NCBI GenBank assembly: GCA_029856365.1
Contig: JAHQWW010000006.1
Location: forward strand, 1-64,000
Direction of reading: 5' to 3'
DNA length: 64,000 bases
DNA from: Candidatus Hodarchaeota archaeon
GTDB taxonomy: Archaea; Asgardarchaeota; Heimdallarchaeia; Hodarchaeales; Hodarchaeaceae
Program-made: the position numbers and the translations under genes
Shown here: one piece after another, positions 37,945-48,994 of the stretch
Position numbering within the stretch: position 1 is the first letter of the stretch
How the letters are laid out: each line of letters opens with the position of its first letter
The notes under the pieces: generated by a model
The model's database searches: none
What the model saw: only the letters and a program-made list of their open reading frames with translations
What the model was told of the DNA's origin: nothing

Positions 37945-39456
37945 CTAGGATATCCCTAGGAAACCACGTAAAGCAGGATTCATTTCCGCGACTCTTTCTT
38001 TACTTATCAATTCAAAGTATTGCCTCATAATACTAACTGAGAGCAAAATACCCATACCAGAACCGATTGCTCCAAGGAAATCAGCAAAAGCTGCAAGACA
38101 ACCAATGAATAATCCACCTATAACAGCTATTGTAGGAATATACATCTCTAATCGACGTTCAACAATCTTTTTGCTTCGGCGCCAGCCTGGCATCTGCATT
38201 CCTGATTGTAAGAACTGGCTTGCTACATCTCGAGGACCCATTCCAGCAGTTTCTAACCACATGACCGAAAAAATGACTGAAAGGACGATTAGAATAGCTG
38301 CATAAATGAAGGCACGAGCTATGGATGCTATTGGATTGGCAGGATTGATAACCCCAAGATCCCCGATAAAAGATCGTGGGGGGGTTAAGAAATAAACAAG
38401 ACCACTTGTTGGAACATATTGTCCAGAAGATTCACTAAATGTTCCTAGAAAAGCAGCTAATGGATTATTGGGATTTTGTCTACCAACGGTATTCCAGACC
38501 ATTTGGGCGATGAAGTAAATGTCGGCAAATACGGCCGAGGTTAGGATGACTGGGATATTTGACACGTAAAGCAGTTTAATAGGATAAGTGGAACGGATCC
38601 CCTTATATTGTGCATAAGAAATCGGAATTTCAATCCGCATTGATTCAAAATAGATGACAATGATAAACACAACAATGGTAGCGATTACAGAAAGGAGAGA
38701 CAAAGAAGGTAGATTTACATTTTCAGCAGGACTATAGCGGAGAAATAATGCAGTTATTGCCTCAATAGGACCGCGTTGTGTAGCCCAAGCAAAAAATGCA
38801 AGAGCAATCCCTCGAAATGAGGTCACCCCCAATTCGGGAGATGTTATATATCCTTCCCCAAGTGCTTGTGCTGCAAATAGGCCCTGAAAAATTTGCAAGC
38901 CAACACCCCCCGCAATGAATAGCGAAATTCCTGATCCTAAACCCCAACCTTTCTGAATCATTTCATCAAGAAGAATGATGATAATACCTGCTGCTAATAA
39001 TTGAGCAATTATTGCTAATTGCCTTCCAGGATCAAGATTAGTTCCATAAGTTCCTCCGATTAAGAAGGCACTAGCCTCTATGATTGTCATTGCTACTGAC
39101 ATAACCTTTTGTGCACCAGTATAGAGAGATCTCTCTTCCGGATCTCCCATATTTACATTGATAATTTTAGATCCTACTAAGATCTGCATAATGAGTCCTG
39201 CGGTTACTATAGGGCCAATTCCAAGCTCGGCCAAGGATCCTTGAGTTGACGCCGTGATTGTCCGCATAAAGGCAAAAGGGTCACTCTCTCCTAAATCAGC
39301 CCCAATAATAGGAGTTGATGCCATTACAAAATAAATAACAAGAGCAGCGAATGTCCAGATCATTTTCTCATTGAAATGAACCTCACGGGTTGGTTTAACA
39401 ACTTCTGGGGTTATTGACATGAACGGCCGAACAGCTTGAAGAAACCTAGATGTCAT
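37945..39456 (-). CDS. secY: Preprotein translocase SecY/Sec61alpha
   Basis: ELGIGPIVTAG, KGWGLGSGISLFIA, YPIKLLYVSNIP, GSGMGILL; ATG 39456 follows GGAGG. Confidence 0.98.
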   Translation of the reverse strand: MTSRFLQAVRPFMSITPEVVKPTREVHFNEKMIWTFAALVIYFVMASTPIIGADLGESDPFAFMRTITASTQGSLAELGIGPIVTAGLIMQILVGSKIINVNMGDPEERSLYTGAQKVMSVAMTIIEASAFLIGGTYGTNLDPGRQLAIIAQLLAAGIIIILLDEMIQKGWGLGSGISLFIAGGVGLQIFQGLFAAQALGEGYITSPELGVTSFRGIALAFFAWATQRGPIEAITALFLRYSPAENVNLPSLSLLSVIATIVVFIIVIYFESMRIEIPISYAQYKGIRSTYPIKLLYVSNIPVILTSAVFADIYFIAQMVWNTVGRQNPNNPLAAFLGTFSESSGQYVPTSGLVYFLTPPRSFIGDLGVINPANPIASIARAFIYAAILIVLSVIFSVMWLETAGMGPRDVASQFLQSGMQMPGWRRSKKIVERRLEMYIPTIAVIGGLFIGCLAAFADFLGAIGSGMGILLSVSIMRQYFELISKERVAEMNPALRGFLGIS

Positions 39457-40190
39457 ATAATGAACCTCCAAAATTGAATGAGCGGTTCTAATACATAGGA
39501 ACTCAGATTTATACTATAGTTAAATCTATTAGAGATTAAAGGATTGTTTTATCTATATATTCAACTTTGTTTTCTTTTTTTATTGATTTAGTTTCTATTT
39601 ATTTCACTCGCAATGAAAGAAGGAATGGAGTCATTGAGGTTATTAGGGGAAGGGGTTGAAGTTTAAAAGCATTATACTAAATTAAGACATGAATAACATC
39701 CACAGAAGGCTAAAAAAAAGAATGAAGAATTATTATAATAATGAAGGATGGAAAAAGAGGATTTAAAAAAATATTTATTAAAAAAGGGGTTAAGAAGAAG
39801 TATTTGGGGAATCTATAATCCATTCATTTTTGCGTTATTTCTATCTTTTTTTACTTCTCTACTGTTATTTTCTCTCCCCAACTCTTTTTCGCTTTTGTTC
39901 TGTCATCTTATACTTTCTTCCCACTTTGAAACTTTTAATTCCCTCATCTGATTTCATTTTTTATCAGATTTATTGTTTCAATTCACCATATACAGTTATG
40001 GTTGCTTGTACCTATTGTTTAATTTATTTCAGTAAAGTTTTGCAATAAAAGATAAAATATTTTATACTGTGTAAAACGAGACCGTGTCAGCCATAATCTG
40101 CAAGTTCAGGTGGATTATCAGAATATCAATCTCTTAATCGATACTAGCGTTGCTATTGATAACAAAGGCAAATCCTAGGAGCATTCGAAG

Positions 40191-42287
40191 ATGAAAAGGA
40201 AACTAGAATCTAGCTTGAATTTTTTCCTCATTGTTATGATAGTTTCTACCCTTCTCGTGACAATAAATATAAACGTTGCCCAGGGAATCTCTAGAAATAA
40301 TGAAAATTTTTATCAAGCCGAAGTAGAACAGAATAATATAGATTTACTAAATTTTTTTGACGTTAATGACTTCACTAATACAAGCCACGAAATAACTGTA
40401 AGTCGGGAAATAATAGGCAATCCTTATGGTTATACTACCTCATATACTAAAATTCATCTACACCTGTCTGAAAATGCCTCCCAACTGATAAATGCTTTTA
40501 ATTATACTATTCCATCTCATGAACTTCTTGATACAAAATATCTGGAAATTTATTCTCTAAACGATACTAACATAGAGTCCACTGAAGTTTTAAGTACAAT
40601 AAAGAAAAATGAATCAACTACATTTGTCGTTAAAATTCCATCAGTTGAAAAAAATCAATTTTTATCAATAATAATAAAGATGGATCATCTTAATGCCATA
40701 ACATTTGAAGAGAAGGCTAAACTCGAGTCCTCAACCTTTCCTTATCAATTTAATCTCAGTTTTCTTCCTCTGATTTCTTTTCCAATTACATCTTATAATT
40801 TACAGTGGAAAGTAGGGGATGATATCGAGGTTAACGTGGAGAATGATTCCATTCAACCAACAAGGGATGCTTTTACAGGTGATTTCTCAGAAGATACTTC
40901 CTATGGGTTAGTTTTTGAAAATATAACTGAACTTTCAACCATTAACAGATCCTTATTAAATCAATCTGAATATGGAAACTATAATCTTACTGCATTACAA
41001 AATCGGCCGTTCATTCCAGCCTATATTCCAACTCAAGCCACCAATTTCAAATCCTATCTTTCTTTCGCCTATTTCCAGAAAGCAAATACAAAAATTGAAT
41101 TCACAGAGTTGAAATCAGTGGTCACCGTATCAGAGTGGGGATATGTTACTACTAGTCATGAAATTACGCTCCATAATATTGGTATTAAATCGGGTTCCAG
41201 TTTATCTACAGCTCTTGGCGGATCATCATTTCCTATTACTTTTTATCTTCCTGAAAGTGCTAGAAAAATTGGATTACATGATAATTATGGGAATCTCACA
41301 CCATCAATATCCCTAGACTCTGTACTAAGTAAGAAGATCTTGAGAATCAATCCATTAGGCCAAGACCAAAATTGTCCCAGAATCCAAATAGAACAAGATG
41401 CAAGATATAATTTGTATCTATCTTACCGAGAAGAAGTTTCAGATCTTATAAAAGACGTAGGAGGAGGTAAAACTCAATTACGAATTCCTTTGGCTATGAA
41501 CTTTAACTGGACAATTCAAAGATTTGAATTTAATCTATTATTACCTCATGGTTCGAGCTACAACAGAACCAGTATAATAAATTCAATAGAGCAAAAAGCT
41601 TTGAGAGAATCTACTCATAATTCTTCAATACGAAAAAATGAACTCCTTGGGATCTTCGATAAAACTGGTTTCAAAATAATTTTTAAGGATCTAACCCCCC
41701 TCAGCAACCAATACCTCAACATTGATTTTCGTCTTTCCTTTCTTTATTTTGTAAATACTCCTCTTTCCATCTGTATTCTGTTTTTACTTCTAGGTATAGC
41801 TTATACAATCGTTCGCAATCTCTCGTTCGGTTTTAAACCCAAAAGAATAACATTAGAGGAAATACCTCTGGATTTAATAAAGGAGTTTGTGAAAGCTTAC
41901 GAAGAAAAGACTGCAATTAGAGAACAAATACTAAGGCTTGATCGAAAACGGAAATCAAAGAAAATAAACCAACGAGAGTATGAACAAACCCGAATAATTT
42001 TAGGGAATCGCCAAAAAGAAATCGATCGTTCAATTGTATCAGTATCAAAAAAATTAGCAGAAAAAGAACCACGATATAGAATATCCATGAGATCCATCGA
42101 AGTTGCGGAAGCTAATCGAGAAGACATTCTACAAAATATTGAATCACTTGAACTGAAGAAGACCCAGGGGAGGATTGGTAAAGAAGCTTATGCCAAGCTA
42201 AAATTAAATTATGATAAGCAGCTTCGTAAGGCAAACAACGAGGTCGATAAGGTTTTAATTGATCTACGCTCGCTACTTTCAAAATGA
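40191..42287 (+). CDS. Ribophorin I (RPN1/Ost1) homologue
   Basis: Signal peptide, VTVSEWGYVTTSHEITLHNIG, LPESA...HDNYGNL, LLPHGS, single TM, cytosolic helical tail. Confidence 0.8.
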   Translation: MKRKLESSLNFFLIVMIVSTLLVTININVAQGISRNNENFYQAEVEQNNIDLLNFFDVNDFTNTSHEITVSREIIGNPYGYTTSYTKIHLHLSENASQLINAFNYTIPSHELLDTKYLEIYSLNDTNIESTEVLSTIKKNESTTFVVKIPSVEKNQFLSIIIKMDHLNAITFEEKAKLESSTFPYQFNLSFLPLISFPITSYNLQWKVGDDIEVNVENDSIQPTRDAFTGDFSEDTSYGLVFENITELSTINRSLLNQSEYGNYNLTALQNRPFIPAYIPTQATNFKSYLSFAYFQKANTKIEFTELKSVVTVSEWGYVTTSHEITLHNIGIKSGSSLSTALGGSSFPITFYLPESARKIGLHDNYGNLTPSISLDSVLSKKILRINPLGQDQNCPRIQIEQDARYNLYLSYREEVSDLIKDVGGGKTQLRIPLAMNFNWTIQRFEFNLLLPHGSSYNRTSIINSIEQKALRESTHNSSIRKNELLGIFDKTGFKIIFKDLTPLSNQYLNIDFRLSFLYFVNTPLSICILFLLLGIAYTIVRNLSFGFKPKRITLEEIPLDLIKEFVKAYEEKTAIREQILRLDRKRKSKKINQREYEQTRIILGNRQKEIDRSIVSVSKKLAEKEPRYRISMRSIEVAEANREDILQNIESLELKKTQGRIGKEAYAKLKLNYDKQLRKANNEVDKVLIDLRSLLSK

Positions 42288-42716: not shown

Positions 42717-43001
42717 TTATTTTTGAGTATGTGACAACGAAAAAGGTTTACCTTCTGAAAGAACCTTAGTTGGTATCTTATCTTGATTAGATGAAAGAAA
42801 TTTTAGATCTTCATCCTTATTTCTTAAATCATCTGGTAACATTACTGGTATTGTCCCTTTGATGGGATAATAACGATTACATTCCGAACAAACGATAAGA
42901 CCAGTTTCAATTTCTGTTTCATCCTCTTTAAAGATGAATAATTCTAATTTAGGGTTTTTACAGATTGGACAGGCTAAGATTTCTAATAAGTTCTTTTTCA
43001 T
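42717..43001 (-). CDS. trm112: Trm112 methyltransferase activator
   Basis: LLEILACPIC...GLIVCSECNRYYPIKGTIPVMLP. Confidence 0.92.
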   Translation of the reverse strand: MKKNLLEILACPICKNPKLELFIFKEDETEIETGLIVCSECNRYYPIKGTIPVMLPDDLRNKDEDLKFLSSNQDKIPTKVLSEGKPFSLSHTQK

Positions 43002-43223: not shown

Positions 43224-43541
43224 TTAATAACTTACCGGATATACAAGCACAATAACTCCTATAATCACAATCATAAGTAGACAAATAATGAACCATTCGC
43301 GAAAATATCGCTTTTGGACTACAGGATCCGAGGTTTTAGTCAACTGTGTCCGAAAATTCCATGTAATCAACAAAAGGATAGCTGTAAGAAATATAGGCAT
43401 CAAATTCAGTACAGTATTGTCGAGAACACTCATATATAAGAATATAGCGATGATTAAGATGAAACCATAGCCGATCAAAGAGATATCCAGCAATTTGACT
43501 GGTTTAGGAAGATTAAACCATCCTTCAAGATCAGAACTCAT
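43224..43541 (-). CDS. Three-TM protein resembling DAD1/Ost2
   Basis: PKPVKLLDISL, FRTQL, KRYFREWF in the order and spacing of DAD1 motifs (recalled sequence). Confidence 0.65.
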   Translation of the reverse strand: MSSDLEGWFNLPKPVKLLDISLIGYGFILIIAIFLYMSVLDNTVLNLMPIFLTAILLLITWNFRTQLTKTSDPVVQKRYFREWFIICLLMIVIIGVIVLVYPVSY

Positions 43542-43734: not shown

Positions 43735-43905
43735 TTGTCAATGAAGATATTTCAATTGATTTGCTATTTTAAATTTAATTATGAATCTAGTTTCACCCAA
43801 TTTTAATTTTCCTAAATTCTCTATCTTTTTTGGAACTATAAAAGAATATTTTAAAAATTCAGCCCATTTTACCATCTAATGATGAATATATTGGGGAATC
43901 TTCCA

Positions 43906-45225
43906 ATGAAACGAATAAAAACTGTTATAATAGGCGCTGCTGGACGAGATTTCCATAATTTTAACACTTATTTTCGTAATAATGAAAGATATGACGTGGT
44001 AGCATTTACTGCCACTCAAATTCCCGATATTTCAGGACGAAAATATCCTGCTGAATTAGCTGGATTTTTATATCCCGAAGGTATCCCTATTTATCCTGAA
44101 AAAGATTTACCGTCCTTAATTAGGCAACATAAAGTCGATCAGGTGATCATGGCGTATTCTGATATCTCCCATGTTCAAGTTATGCAAAAAGCTTCTCATG
44201 TCCTTGCTATTGGACCAGATTTTAGATTAATGGGAACTAAGCATACTTGTATAAAGTCAAACAAACCAGTTATTGCAGTATGCGCTGTCAGAACAGGAGC
44301 AGGCAAGAGTCAAGTCTCTAGGAGACTGGGCCAAATCTTACGAAAGCATGGAAAGCGTGTTGCAGTTATTCGGCACCCAATGCCTTATGGTGAATTAAGA
44401 AAACAAATTTGTCAGCGATTTGGTGATTTAGCTGACTTAGATAAACATGAATGCACTATAGAAGAGCGTGAAGAATATGCTCCTCATATTGAGGCAGGTA
44501 ATTTAGTTTTCGCTGGTGTAGATTACGATGTAATTCTAAAAGAAGCAGAGAAAGAAGCAGATATTATTTTGTGGGATGGAGGAAATAATGATTTTCCTTT
44601 TTATGCCCCAGACTTGTGGTTCACTGTTACCGATCCTCATCGTCTTGGACATGAAACTACTTATTATCCTGGTCACACAAATCTTTTAGCTAGTGACGTT
44701 ATAATTGTAAATAAAGTCGATACCGCGAAAACAGAGGATGTTGAAACGTTAATAGAGACCATAAAAGTAGAGAATCCGAAAGCACAGATTATAAAAGCAG
44801 AGAGTATTGTAACGGTTGAAGATCCTGATATAATCAGAGAAAAACGTGTATTGGTTGTTGAAGATGGACCAACAGTGACTCATGGAGATATGGAATACGG
44901 TGCTGGGATGGTTGCAGCCAAAAATAATCATGCTTCAGAAATTATTGACCCTCGCCCTTTCGCAGTTCGTTCCATTAATGATACTTATGAAAAATACACA
45001 CATCTTAAACAAGTTTTGCCTGCAATGGGATATGGAGCAAAACAGATCAAAGACCTTGAAGAAACTATTAATAATACTAATGCCGATACTGTTATCATTG
45101 GTACCCCAATAGATTTACGAAGGTTAATTACTATTAACAAGCCTAATACTCGCATTACTTATGATGTTGATGAGAAAAGTACTAAAGCTCTAGAAAATAT
45201 CCTAGAAGCAAGAGGTTTTATATAA
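43906..45225 (+). CDS. COG2403 P-loop protein, arginine synthetase (ArcE)-like / cDPG synthetase family
   Basis: GAAGRDFHNFN, RTGAGKS, RHPMPYG, TIEEREEY, WDGGNND, EDGPT.THG. Confidence 0.85.
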   Translation: MKRIKTVIIGAAGRDFHNFNTYFRNNERYDVVAFTATQIPDISGRKYPAELAGFLYPEGIPIYPEKDLPSLIRQHKVDQVIMAYSDISHVQVMQKASHVLAIGPDFRLMGTKHTCIKSNKPVIAVCAVRTGAGKSQVSRRLGQILRKHGKRVAVIRHPMPYGELRKQICQRFGDLADLDKHECTIEEREEYAPHIEAGNLVFAGVDYDVILKEAEKEADIILWDGGNNDFPFYAPDLWFTVTDPHRLGHETTYYPGHTNLLASDVIIVNKVDTAKTEDVETLIETIKVENPKAQIIKAESIVTVEDPDIIREKRVLVVEDGPTVTHGDMEYGAGMVAAKNNHASEIIDPRPFAVRSINDTYEKYTHLKQVLPAMGYGAKQIKDLEETINNTNADTVIIGTPIDLRRLITINKPNTRITYDVDEKSTKALENILEARGFI

Positions 45226-45426: not shown

Positions 45427-45786
45427 TTAATAGGATTCTTGTGTTGATACAACCACCATATATAAGCCAACAATTGCTACAAGTGCACTAACAAATGAAG
45501 TAATGACTCTTTCAAAAGGAGGATATTCGTAGTAATACATTAGAAATGAAATAAGAATGCTCCATCCGAGTCCAAGGCCTCCAATAATCGTTGCGTTATT
45601 TCCTTCATCGAATCCGAAACTCTCGCGATTTCCATACCCAAGTCCAATACCGCCAACTAATCCACCAAACCAGATTATAAATAATACAACATATGGAGGA
45701 TCTGGCGGGGGTGGCAACGCAGTAATGACTGCTATCATTATACTAATTACAAATATTAATGTACCAATTAATGTAGGGGTTTTCAC
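45427..45786 (-). CDS. Four-TM protein resembling KCP2/KRTCAP2
   Basis: GGLVG, GNRESFGFDEG, RV...IVGLY...Y resemble recalled KCP2 motifs; SD gaggt upstream of GTG. Confidence 0.55.
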   Translation of the reverse strand: MKTPTLIGTLIFVISIMIAVITALPPPPDPPYVVLFIIWFGGLVGGIGLGYGNRESFGFDEGNNATIIGGLGLGWSILISFLMYYYEYPPFERVITSFVSALVAIVGLYMVVVSTQESY

Positions 45787-46621: not shown

Positions 46622-46957
46622 TTGGAAAAAAAAATGCGACTATCAATTGCTAATATATTTGGAACTTTCAATCGTTCCTTCAGAATAAAAAAAAATAGAA
46701 TCCGCTGCATTTCAATACAGGATTTCACAGATACAGATGATATTGAACTTGAGATGGAACATCATAGTTTAATAATTGTCTTTTTCAAAGAGTTTCGAAT
46801 AAAACAACCAATGCGAGCCAAACGATTTTTGCAGCGACTAAATGCATTCATTCGGCAATATGAATATGATATGTTAAACCTAGGGAAACTTGATTATCTC
46901 TTTCTTTTACCAAAAGATTGTGAACTCACAACAAAGGCCTTAAGTTCAATTGTATGA
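46622..46957 (+). CDS. SepF-like protein
   Basis: Pattern LIIVFF...RFLQRLNAF....DMLNLG..YLFLLP resembles the archaeal SepF core. Confidence 0.55.
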   Translation: MEKKMRLSIANIFGTFNRSFRIKKNRIRCISIQDFTDTDDIELEMEHHSLIIVFFKEFRIKQPMRAKRFLQRLNAFIRQYEYDMLNLGKLDYLFLLPKDCELTTKALSSIV

Positions 46958-46980: not shown

Positions 46981-48246
46981 TTATTTTTTCTTCCCTAAAT
47001 TTATGTATATGATTATTGCAGTTGATAGAAATAGGATAGAAGATGCCAAAAATAAGCCCTGAAGAGCTAGGTTTGGTGGGTTCGGTGTAGGAAATGGAGG
47101 TTTTATATATATGCGGCCAACACTTAATTCAAGAGGTAGATAACCGATACGGCTAGCGATGAACACTACATCACAATATCCATAACTCAAGCCCTCTGTA
47201 CTCACCCAACCAGAATAATTGGAAGCATTATTAGGAAATATATGCATTATTCTTGAACTCAGAATAGTGCCTGTACGTTCAAGAGTAATGATTAGTTTTA
47301 CTTGCGAAAGACTTTGGTTTTGAGAATTTACCAAAGTGACATTACCGTGAATTATTTCTCCAATATCAATTGATTGACCATCTAAATCTACCCATGGATT
47401 ATAAAAATTCATTATTCCAGTATTTTTTCCTAACCATCTTATCGCATTCAAAATGAAATCTGTGTTATCTAAGAAAATCTTTGTAGTATTGGCAAGAGGT
47501 TCGATATAACTGTTATTAAACATGTCTACTGATCCAATAGCTAATATTCGGGCCCCATTTTCAAATTCTAGAGTTGAAATCAAAGTATTATTCCCCGATG
47601 GAGCTTCTTCAGAATTATCAACTAGGATAGGATTATAATACACTATAGCTGGAGATTGATAACTTTCTAGCTTTGATTCATTTACTGATATTCCCATTCC
47701 GTTGGGGCATATGATTTGGGAAATGTTTTCCGTTAAAGGAGTAATTGGTGTCGTGAAATTTCGAGCCAAGGCCTTTTTTGATATAATAGAGCTTGAATAA
47801 TTGAAGGTTAAACCAAAAACATTCAGGACATCATTTGATGGCTCTCTCGTTTGGTTTCTATAACTGGAAGCTATCAGTACGGAGTTCCCTTTCTTTATAA
47901 ACTCTTCTAAGACCATAATTTCCGTTTCAGGATCAAAGCTTAAGGTAGGTGCTAATATAGTTAATACATCAATACCTGCTAAATTCTCCGACGTGAATTT
48001 TTCCTTAAGAAATACAACTTGCTGGGAACTAAAGGTAGTATTAAGAATGGACGTCAAATTAGTGATCTCACTGGTATTAATATCATTTTGGTGATATATA
48101 TCAATTCCAATAATGATTTCAGATTCAATGGTGGGTTTAACTGTTCCCTGAACTATTATTAGATTCAAATAAGAATTATTAGTAGTAAGAATAGTGAGAA
48201 AGAATACTATGACTATTATGATCCAAGAATTCTTCAGTTTACTCAA
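46981..48246 (-). CDS. OST48/Wbp1-like type I membrane protein (GIFT-type lumenal domain)
   Basis: Signal peptide; [49 protein letters not shown]; C-terminal TM. Confidence 0.72.
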   Translation of the reverse strand: [421 protein letters not shown]

Positions 48247-48424: not shown

Positions 48425-48994
48425 TTAAGGTACCACAGCACGATAGATGATAAACTCACCTGCTGTGGGACTTTTACGTATTATTTTCAGTACATCTCCG
48501 ACTTTAGCACCTAGAAGTTGTACAGCAGGATCTTCCGCTGATATTTTTGGTAATTGATACTTGAAAATAGAATATCTTTTCTCTAATTCCTTGATTTCGT
48601 CTTCGGTGGCAAATTCATGTAGAGGTACTAAATAATGTTTAAATAAATTAAAGAAAGGAAACTTGATCGAAAAGGTTTCAATATTAGCGGCTTTTGCCTC
48701 TCGTTTCGCATAATGAGTATATTTGCTTAAGGCAAGCAGAATGGCGTGATCATAATTTTTTTTCTCTATTTCTTCCTTGTAATCACGTAATTCCCGAACA
48801 CCAACAACTTCTTTTGTTGGAATACGTACAATAATTGTTTTCTTGTTGGCGTCTTTTCCGTAAATATCATAAAATTCATCCTTTTCAATCTCAGAAGTTA
48901 CAGTAAACCCTCTTGTTGAAAGAATTGATTTAGCTCCGTCAATAACTCGTTCTTTACGGCCACTCACACTCTGTATTCTCCAAATGCAGCTCAT
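48425..48994 (-). CDS. rpoH: RNA polymerase subunit Rpo5 (H) with RPB5-like N-terminal domain
   Basis: C-terminal HYLVPLHE...LPKISAEDP...GDVLKIIRKSPTAG..YRAV plus ~110-aa N-terminal extension. Confidence 0.92.
   Translation of the reverse strand: MSCIWRIQSVSGRKERVIDGAKSILSTRGFTVTSEIEKDEFYDIYGKDANKKTIIVRIPTKEVVGVRELRDYKEEIEKKNYDHAILLALSKYTHYAKREAKAANIETFSIKFPFFNLFKHYLVPLHEFATEDEIKELEKRYSIFKYQLPKISAEDPAVQLLGAKVGDVLKIIRKSPTAGEFIIYRAVVP

Follow-up and report, generated by a model that had tools for sequence, protein, structure and literature searches.

A probable DAD1/Ost2 homologue in a Hodarchaeales genome, with diverged relatives in other Asgard archaea

A 105-codon gene from a Hodarchaeales genome very probably encodes a homologue of DAD1/Ost2, an accessory subunit of the enzyme that glycosylates proteins in eukaryotic cells. 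This assignment, put forward in the original prediction, is favoured by profile searching, by fold searches with two independent models and by a predicted complex with AglB that was run against controls. The protein is probably a non-catalytic membrane subunit, bound to AglB, of a multi-subunit oligosaccharyltransferase (OST). The polypeptide has the fold and motif register of Ost2, and is predicted to dock through TM2 and a single side of TM3 on the eukaryote-like STT3/AglB of the same genome. By analogy with the eukaryotic complex, it would cross the membrane three times with its N-terminus inside, and would act as a scaffold between AglB and an OST48/Wbp1-like protein, joining the latter by its one TM helix. 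Table 1 lists the features discussed here, with positions given in the window, that is, the whole stretch of 64,000 nucleotides that was analysed.

Table 1. Features of the DAD1/Ost2-like gene and of its surroundings in the window.
Feature	Position	Strand	Remarks
DAD1/Ost2-like gene	43224..43541	(-)	105 aa, ATG start; N-terminal helix and three TM helices
Helix/TM1, residues 13-38, K-L-L-D motif	43428..43505	(-)	D19 aligned with yeast Ost2 D48
Asn46, outer loop just before TM2	43404..43406	(-)	Aligned with yeast Ost2 Asn75
TM2, residues 48-69, R64 at its end (= Ost2 R95)	43335..43400	(-)	Main predicted AglB contact
Basic, presumably cytosolic helix into TM3, residues 73-100	43242..43325	(-)	R-x-F-x-E-W versus Ost2 R-A-F-A-E-F
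SecY/Sec61-alpha	37945..39471	(-)	PF00344, E=2.9e-64; divergent from ribophorin I gene
Ribophorin I/Ost1 homologue, putative fellow subunit	40191..42287	(+)	PF04597, 33.3 bits, above cut-off; orthologue E=2.6e-18
Trm112	42717..43001	(-)
P-loop protein	43879..45225	(+)	448 aa
Glycine-rich membrane protein	45427..45786	(-)	119 aa
Soluble ORF	46622..46957	(+)	111 aa
OST48/Wbp1-like, C-terminal TM, putative fellow subunit	46981..48246	(-)	PF03345, E=1.1e-7, below cut-off
Rpo5/RPB5	48425..48994	(-)

The gene and its product

The open reading frame and its ATG start are in place, and hydropathy and the AlphaFold2 model (pLDDT 82; helices at residues 3-9, 13-38, 48-69 and 73-100) agree on a short N-terminal helix followed by three long ones, which bears out the three-TM protein described earlier. 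The three peptides that had been quoted from it are likewise present, at residues 11-22, 59-67 and 76-84. We regard the ORF as a real, conserved gene because close relatives exist, 45 proteins at 57-86% identity; Hodarchaeales genomes carry relatives at 61-83% identity. The gene is single-copy, its own ORF scoring 132 bits versus 15 bits for the next-best ORF of the same genome. Basic residues (R64, K69, K77, R78 and R81) mark the TM2-TM3 loop, and the positive-inside rule would therefore place the N-terminus inside and the C-terminus outside, as in DAD1. A Y-P motif is found at the C-terminus, after TM3. Scanning the region with a bacterial promoter model gave seven matches versus a chance expectation of 7.3, and an Rfam scan of 37-50 kb of the window gave no match.

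Sequence similarity to Ost2

A profile of 52 sequences from Heimdallarchaeia, Wukongarchaeia and close unplaced genomes (A7) was collected iteratively from the query alone. Among 177,635 PDB sequences its best match was yeast Ost2 (24.7 bits, E=1.6e-4), the next one reaching 16.8 bits; the match spans Ost2 residues 39-126, and human DAD1 is absent from the PDB matches to this profile. Yeast Ost2 had already ranked first with a smaller profile of 21 sequences (E=0.21), and it was the top natural match to one of 61 sequences (E=0.021). Scored against A7 as controls, none of 510 further multi-TM ORFs from the genome exceeded 15.0 bits and no reversed family member exceeded 17.6 bits; 7% of the members shuffled in 8-residue windows still attained 24.7 bits, so that part of the score derives from the layout of the helices. 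The similarity to Ost2 thus exceeds that of unrelated membrane proteins but partly mirrors this layout.

A single-sequence Pfam scan of the candidate gave no DAD match, only DUF noise, and the DAD model (PF02109; gathering cut-off 27 bits) found nothing above its cut-off in 399 Asgard genomes and missed the candidate gene. Its weak matches are mostly unrelated membrane ORFs, two of them (in G083 and G089) being members of the family. In a tally of Pfam matches among family members DAD came first with 6 of 61, tied with DUF4181, and the best DAD match of any member (20.1 bits, E=8e-4, over 15-106) falls under the cut-off. Neither a feature-based nor a shape-based search of the ESM Atlas returned an informative family for the candidate.

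Comparison of folds

Foldseek placed a yeast OST chain (8agc_D) first for the candidate model, with a TM-score of 0.69 and an E value of 1.2, which is not significant; other Ost2/DAD1 chains in the list have TM-scores of 0.63-0.70. When the candidates were realigned with VIA-align, six of the top seven were Ost2/DAD1 chains (Z 9.0-10.4, rmsd 3.0-3.4), with 97-99 residues aligned at 14-15% identity. A wide fold search gave human DAD1 a Z of 10.1, tied with BAR domains that are three times the length and superpose with an rmsd above 5. The structure prediction and superposition on Ost2 that had been proposed as a check therefore yield a full-length match over the N-terminal helix and the three TM segments, and the fold alone, being a common helical one, is suggestive of DAD1/Ost2 rather than decisive.

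The protein might instead be a different small subunit of OST or of the translocon: Ost5/TMEM258, OSTC/DC2, KCP2 and TRAP-gamma are likewise small, helical and membrane-bound, and Asgard archaea have homologues of them or candidates for them. None of these is among the best sequence or fold matches, though the library searched contains the OST structures, and every OST match is a chain of the size of Ost2/DAD1 (103-110 residues); the rank order largely refutes this reading, and we hold it to be highly improbable.

Conserved residues

Besides the three residue pairs of Table 1, the alignment to yeast Ost2 matches Q66-L67 with Q97-L98 and requires a single gap of two residues. The motif spacings in the candidate and in Ost2 are 27 and 27 from D to N, 18 and 20 from N to R, and 14 and 14 from R to R, the last followed in both by F-x-E-aromatic, where the R-x-F-x-E-W of the candidate is aligned on R-A-F-A-E-F. 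The order and register of motifs claimed relative to human DAD1 are thus borne out by this alignment and by the structural alignment to human DAD1.

Among the 52 sequences of A7, D19 is kept in 49, N46 in 46, and R64 in 48 with Lys in the remaining four; W83 is kept in 43 and an acidic residue at position 82 in 32. The residue set of DAD1/Ost2, comprising the Asp of TM1, the Asn before TM2, the Arg after TM2 and the acidic-aromatic pair before TM3, is therefore present in the family. K16 (33/52), F80 (23/52), Q66 (19/52) and R78 (15/52) vary more. The conservation expected of the motifs KLLD, RxQ and RxF accordingly holds for LLD and for the Arg of RxQ, and is weak for its Gln and for RxF; two of the three motifs selected earlier were not the conserved ones, and the better-conserved N46 and W83 had been overlooked. 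DAD1 carries a loop reading F-P-F-N and ends in N-F-x-G, where the candidate has x-Q-N and Y-P instead. The F-P-F-N signature is not kept in the candidate family, which retains only the Asn.

In yeast, Asn75 of Ost2 forms a hydrogen bond to the penultimate glucose on the lipid-linked donor (PMC9701220). By extension, Asn46 on the outer face might help Wbp1 to shape a pocket in which the lipid-linked glycan is held by its far end. The residue could also be a simple helix cap, because it stands two residues before TM2. It may serve as either a donor-glycan contact or a cap, and we regard a glycan-reading role as rather doubtful.

The predicted complex with AglB

The genome encodes one STT3/AglB (G000:C81:80784-82961 (+); L110:1396-3573), located on the same contig as the candidate and the RPN1, OST48-like and secY genes, 37 kb from the candidate and beyond the window. 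Among PDB sequences, human STT3A (E=8e-93) is a far better match to it than any archaeal AglB. By this and by its motifs S-V-S-E-H-Q and W-W-D-Y-G it is strongly eukaryote-like.

The complex of AglB residues 20-495 with the candidate was predicted with an ipSAE of 0.71 (0.71, 0.69 and 0.71 in individual runs) versus 0.00 for the best of three controls. The runs share at least 91% of their contacts and the partner has a pLDDT of at least 77. The ipSAE mark of this model is reached by 58 of 80 solved pairs and by two of 110 mismatched ones. Because OST is already solved, such a pass may reflect memory, and the score would indicate likeness to OST rather than that this particular copy binds. On the candidate side the predicted interface comprises TM2 (47-65), the loop 42-44 and one face of TM3; on that of AglB it comprises residues 246-274, 202-204 and 77-82/97, the first of these corresponding to human STT3A 234-262, the seventh TM by count. 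Ost2 joins Stt3 to the helices of Wbp1 and Swp1 and lies near TM5, EL1 and TM8-9 of Stt3 (PMC7226087), a position with which the predicted interface appears compatible.

Compared with yeast Ost2 and human DAD1 of OST subcomplex III (PF02109; PDB 6C26, 6EZN, 8AGC, 6S7O, 6S7T), the protein is alike in length (~105-130 aa), in its N-terminal helix and three TM helices superposing with TM-scores of 0.63-0.70, in its predicted binding to STT3, and in the register of D, N, R and F-x-E-aromatic. It differs in having a structural identity of only 14-18% overall, a score under the Pfam cut-off, a TM2 shorter by two residues and a Y-P C-terminus; its genome has yielded no Swp1, and its setting is the archaeal cell membrane versus the ER.

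Neighbouring genes

The RPN1 gene does lie within 1 kb, as had been stated. It ends approximately 0.94 kb short of the candidate; the two genes converge from opposite strands, and genes for ferredoxin and Trm112 stand between. For RPN1 itself, the PF04597 match is above the cut-off. As support for the assignment this proximity is weak, because the cluster with the OST48-like, RPN1 and secY genes is limited to the candidate's own genus, and with the two genes on opposite strands there is no operon. The order OST48-like, two small ORFs, P-loop, candidate, Trm112, ferredoxin, RPN1, secY is confined to that genus, and Hodarchaeum mangrovi already departs from it; an operon or a conserved OST cluster is therefore rejected. 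Elsewhere in Heimdallarchaeia the neighbours are an A24 peptidase gene and one for a prenyltransferase-like protein, or else a RadA-like gene.

The OST48-like gene lies 3.4 kb from the candidate. In two genomes (G059 and G062) the corresponding match, which lies approximately 4 kb away from the orthologue of the candidate, scores above the PF03345 cut-off. No credible match to Swp1/ribophorin II (PF05817, PF25147) was obtained in this genome, which is 84% complete. A soluble ORF of 477 aa (L111:937-2370 (-), G000:C9) gave a weak PF05817 match and was rejected as Swp1 since it has no TM segments; by eye its C-terminal part is longin-like.

Several other genes of the region deserve mention. Trm112 is the next gene downstream of the candidate and shares its strand. 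The arrangement recurs in G079 and in the loci of the genus that extend far enough to show it, and the two genes are possibly co-transcribed. The P-loop protein between the candidate and the OST48-like gene has CobW/CbiA-like matches. The glycine-rich membrane protein occurs only in Hodarchaeales, in 21 of the 23 other genomes of the order and in none from the rest of the class; PF09775, profile searches of the PDB and the ESM Atlas did not bear out a KCP2-like identity for it. The 111-aa ORF has no Pfam match, and its position is kept in all eight related loci and in the window. Rpo5 possesses an N-terminal restriction-endonuclease-like domain, which is the long, eukaryote-type form, and is conserved in the genus.

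Relatives among Asgard archaea

The first profile of the family matched 174 of 399 Asgard genomes. A profile of the non-Heimdall members (A8) matches 314 of them at E<=1e-4, usually with one copy each, including 79 of the 90 best genomes and 126 of the 135 genomes of one Lokiarchaeia family (f20). These matches are full-length ORFs of 92-137 aa, and in the candidate's own genome the best match to A8 is the candidate ORF (E=1.5e-6). The source labels among the relatives are Thor-, Loki-, Hel-, Hermod-, Jord-, Baldr- and Wukong- as well as Borrarchaeum; all named matches are Asgard, the profiles having been run on Asgard genomes only. Aligned by hhalign, A7 gives 98.5% with A8 and 97.1% with a Loki-only profile (A9), figures that lean high because the sets were first chosen by similarity. 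In a tree of 111 columns, with a midpoint root only, each tested family falls together except for one mixed group of three. This tree, the full length of the matched ORFs, the gene context common to many of them and the fold of a Thorarchaeia member (see below) back the wider range independently of the hhalign figures.

In the relatives of families f24 and f25 (L165-L170, L174, L182; 128-137 aa), a charged helical insertion of 25-30 residues is found between TM2 and TM3; these proteins keep L-R/K-x-K/Q/S and a C-terminal F-P. In two single-contig genomes of f19, a family taken as Lokiarchaeia by its gene order, the relative directly follows NAC: G134 (L186:1501-1812, 4.4 Mb), where it has 103 aa, and G137 (L153:1483-1788, 6.0 Mb).

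The non-Heimdall members keep the Trp, and often an acidic residue before TM3, and are without D19, N46 and R64. Neither A8 nor A9 matched Ost2 among the PDB sequences. Many relatives sit in a common NAC-PUA-PAN-MBF1(-atpD) context, so that outside Heimdallarchaeia the gene adjoins these, often with atpD, and not OST genes. Identity is low and three-helix bundles are common, and the protein could on these grounds be an unrelated small membrane protein resembling DAD1 by convergence, such as a factor of co-translational targeting or of ATP synthase assembly. Against this stand the four polar positions in register with Ost2, the E value of the A7 match and the specific docking predicted on AglB. 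A Thorarchaeia protein folded with A8 alone, with no Heimdall sequence used, moreover returned DAD1/Ost2 at Foldseek ranks 1-5 (TM 0.74-0.77, rmsd 2.3-2.4, E 0.18-1.1); in the wide fold search it matched DAD1/Ost2 with a Z of 11.1, tied with BAR domains. Convergence is, in our judgment, improbable, and we retain homology to DAD1/Ost2.

A true homologue need not do all that Ost2 does. The protein may do no more than accompany or stabilise AglB, neither bridging to Wbp1 nor touching the glycan, subcomplex III having been assembled later. Relatives lacking D19, N46 and R64 are present in Loki-, Thor-, Hel-, Hermod- and Jordarchaeia, groups with hardly any PF03345 match (2 of 135 genomes in f20 and one in a Thor family). 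This would suit such a role, as would the failure to find Swp1 in this genome and the glycans of Promethearchaeum syntrophicum, which are reported not to be eukaryote-like (PMC11284389). The D/N/R set is instead concentrated in Heimdallarchaeia and Wukongarchaeia, home of most OST48-like matches, and in the present genome the OST48-like gene is close by; we consider this restricted role possible, though unlikely. The pairing is imperfect in both directions: family f7 is without Asn at column 46, a further point for the restricted role, yet has OST48-like genes, and f4 has the Asn but OST48-like Pfam matches in only 1 of 31 genomes. The co-occurrence is therefore a pattern and not a test, also because kin are not independent. 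For the Hodarchaeales protein we prefer the fuller role of an OST subunit. For the family as a whole we lean slightly towards the view that DAD1/Ost2 is a near-universal single-copy gene of Asgard archaea, Lokiarchaeia included, which at first was simply a three-helix protein paired with AglB and gained the Asp/Asn/Arg set, with the Asn that in yeast reads the donor glycan, in the Heimdall-Wukong lineage together with Wbp1.

Relation to earlier work and significance

DAD/OST2 homologues in Gerdarchaeota were reported by Cai et al. 2019 (10.1101/858530), and Eme et al. 2023 (PMC10307638) reported Asgard Ost2/Dad1, WBP1 and Swp1 as restricted to Heimdallarchaeia. Since these homologues are published, the candidate is a further case of a known Asgard Ost2/DAD1; it shares their class and assignment and very probably belongs to the same family. 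The accessible parts of both texts contain no residue-level or complex analysis, and their range is Heimdallarchaeia only, versus most Asgard families for the relatives found here. The OST of P. syntrophicum MK-D1 (PMC11417166, PMC11284389) is similar in that it, too, has accessory subunits around an Asgard AglB, alongside a Sec61/TRAP translocon; those studies list STT3, OST1 and OST3/6 and no Ost2. In the openly searchable literature we found neither a pan-Asgard range nor the correspondence of Asn46 with Asn75 nor a predicted AglB complex. What seems new relative to the published work is the wider range, with diverged relatives in 314 of 399 Asgard genomes, Lokiarchaeia and Thorarchaeia among them.

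These results add residue-level and complex-level support for a true Ost2/DAD1 in the closest archaeal relatives of eukaryotes, and they offer an annotation for several hundred proteins labelled hypothetical or mislabelled as permeases. If the wider range holds, the origin of Ost2/DAD1, an essential subunit in eukaryotes, would be placed in the Asgard ancestor and no longer in Heimdallarchaeia, and a candidate gene would be named in Lokiarchaeia, where binding to AglB is testable; as that class has cultured members, a pan-Asgard distribution could be tested in culture. Should that distribution prove true, it would date the stepwise origin of OST subcomplex III.
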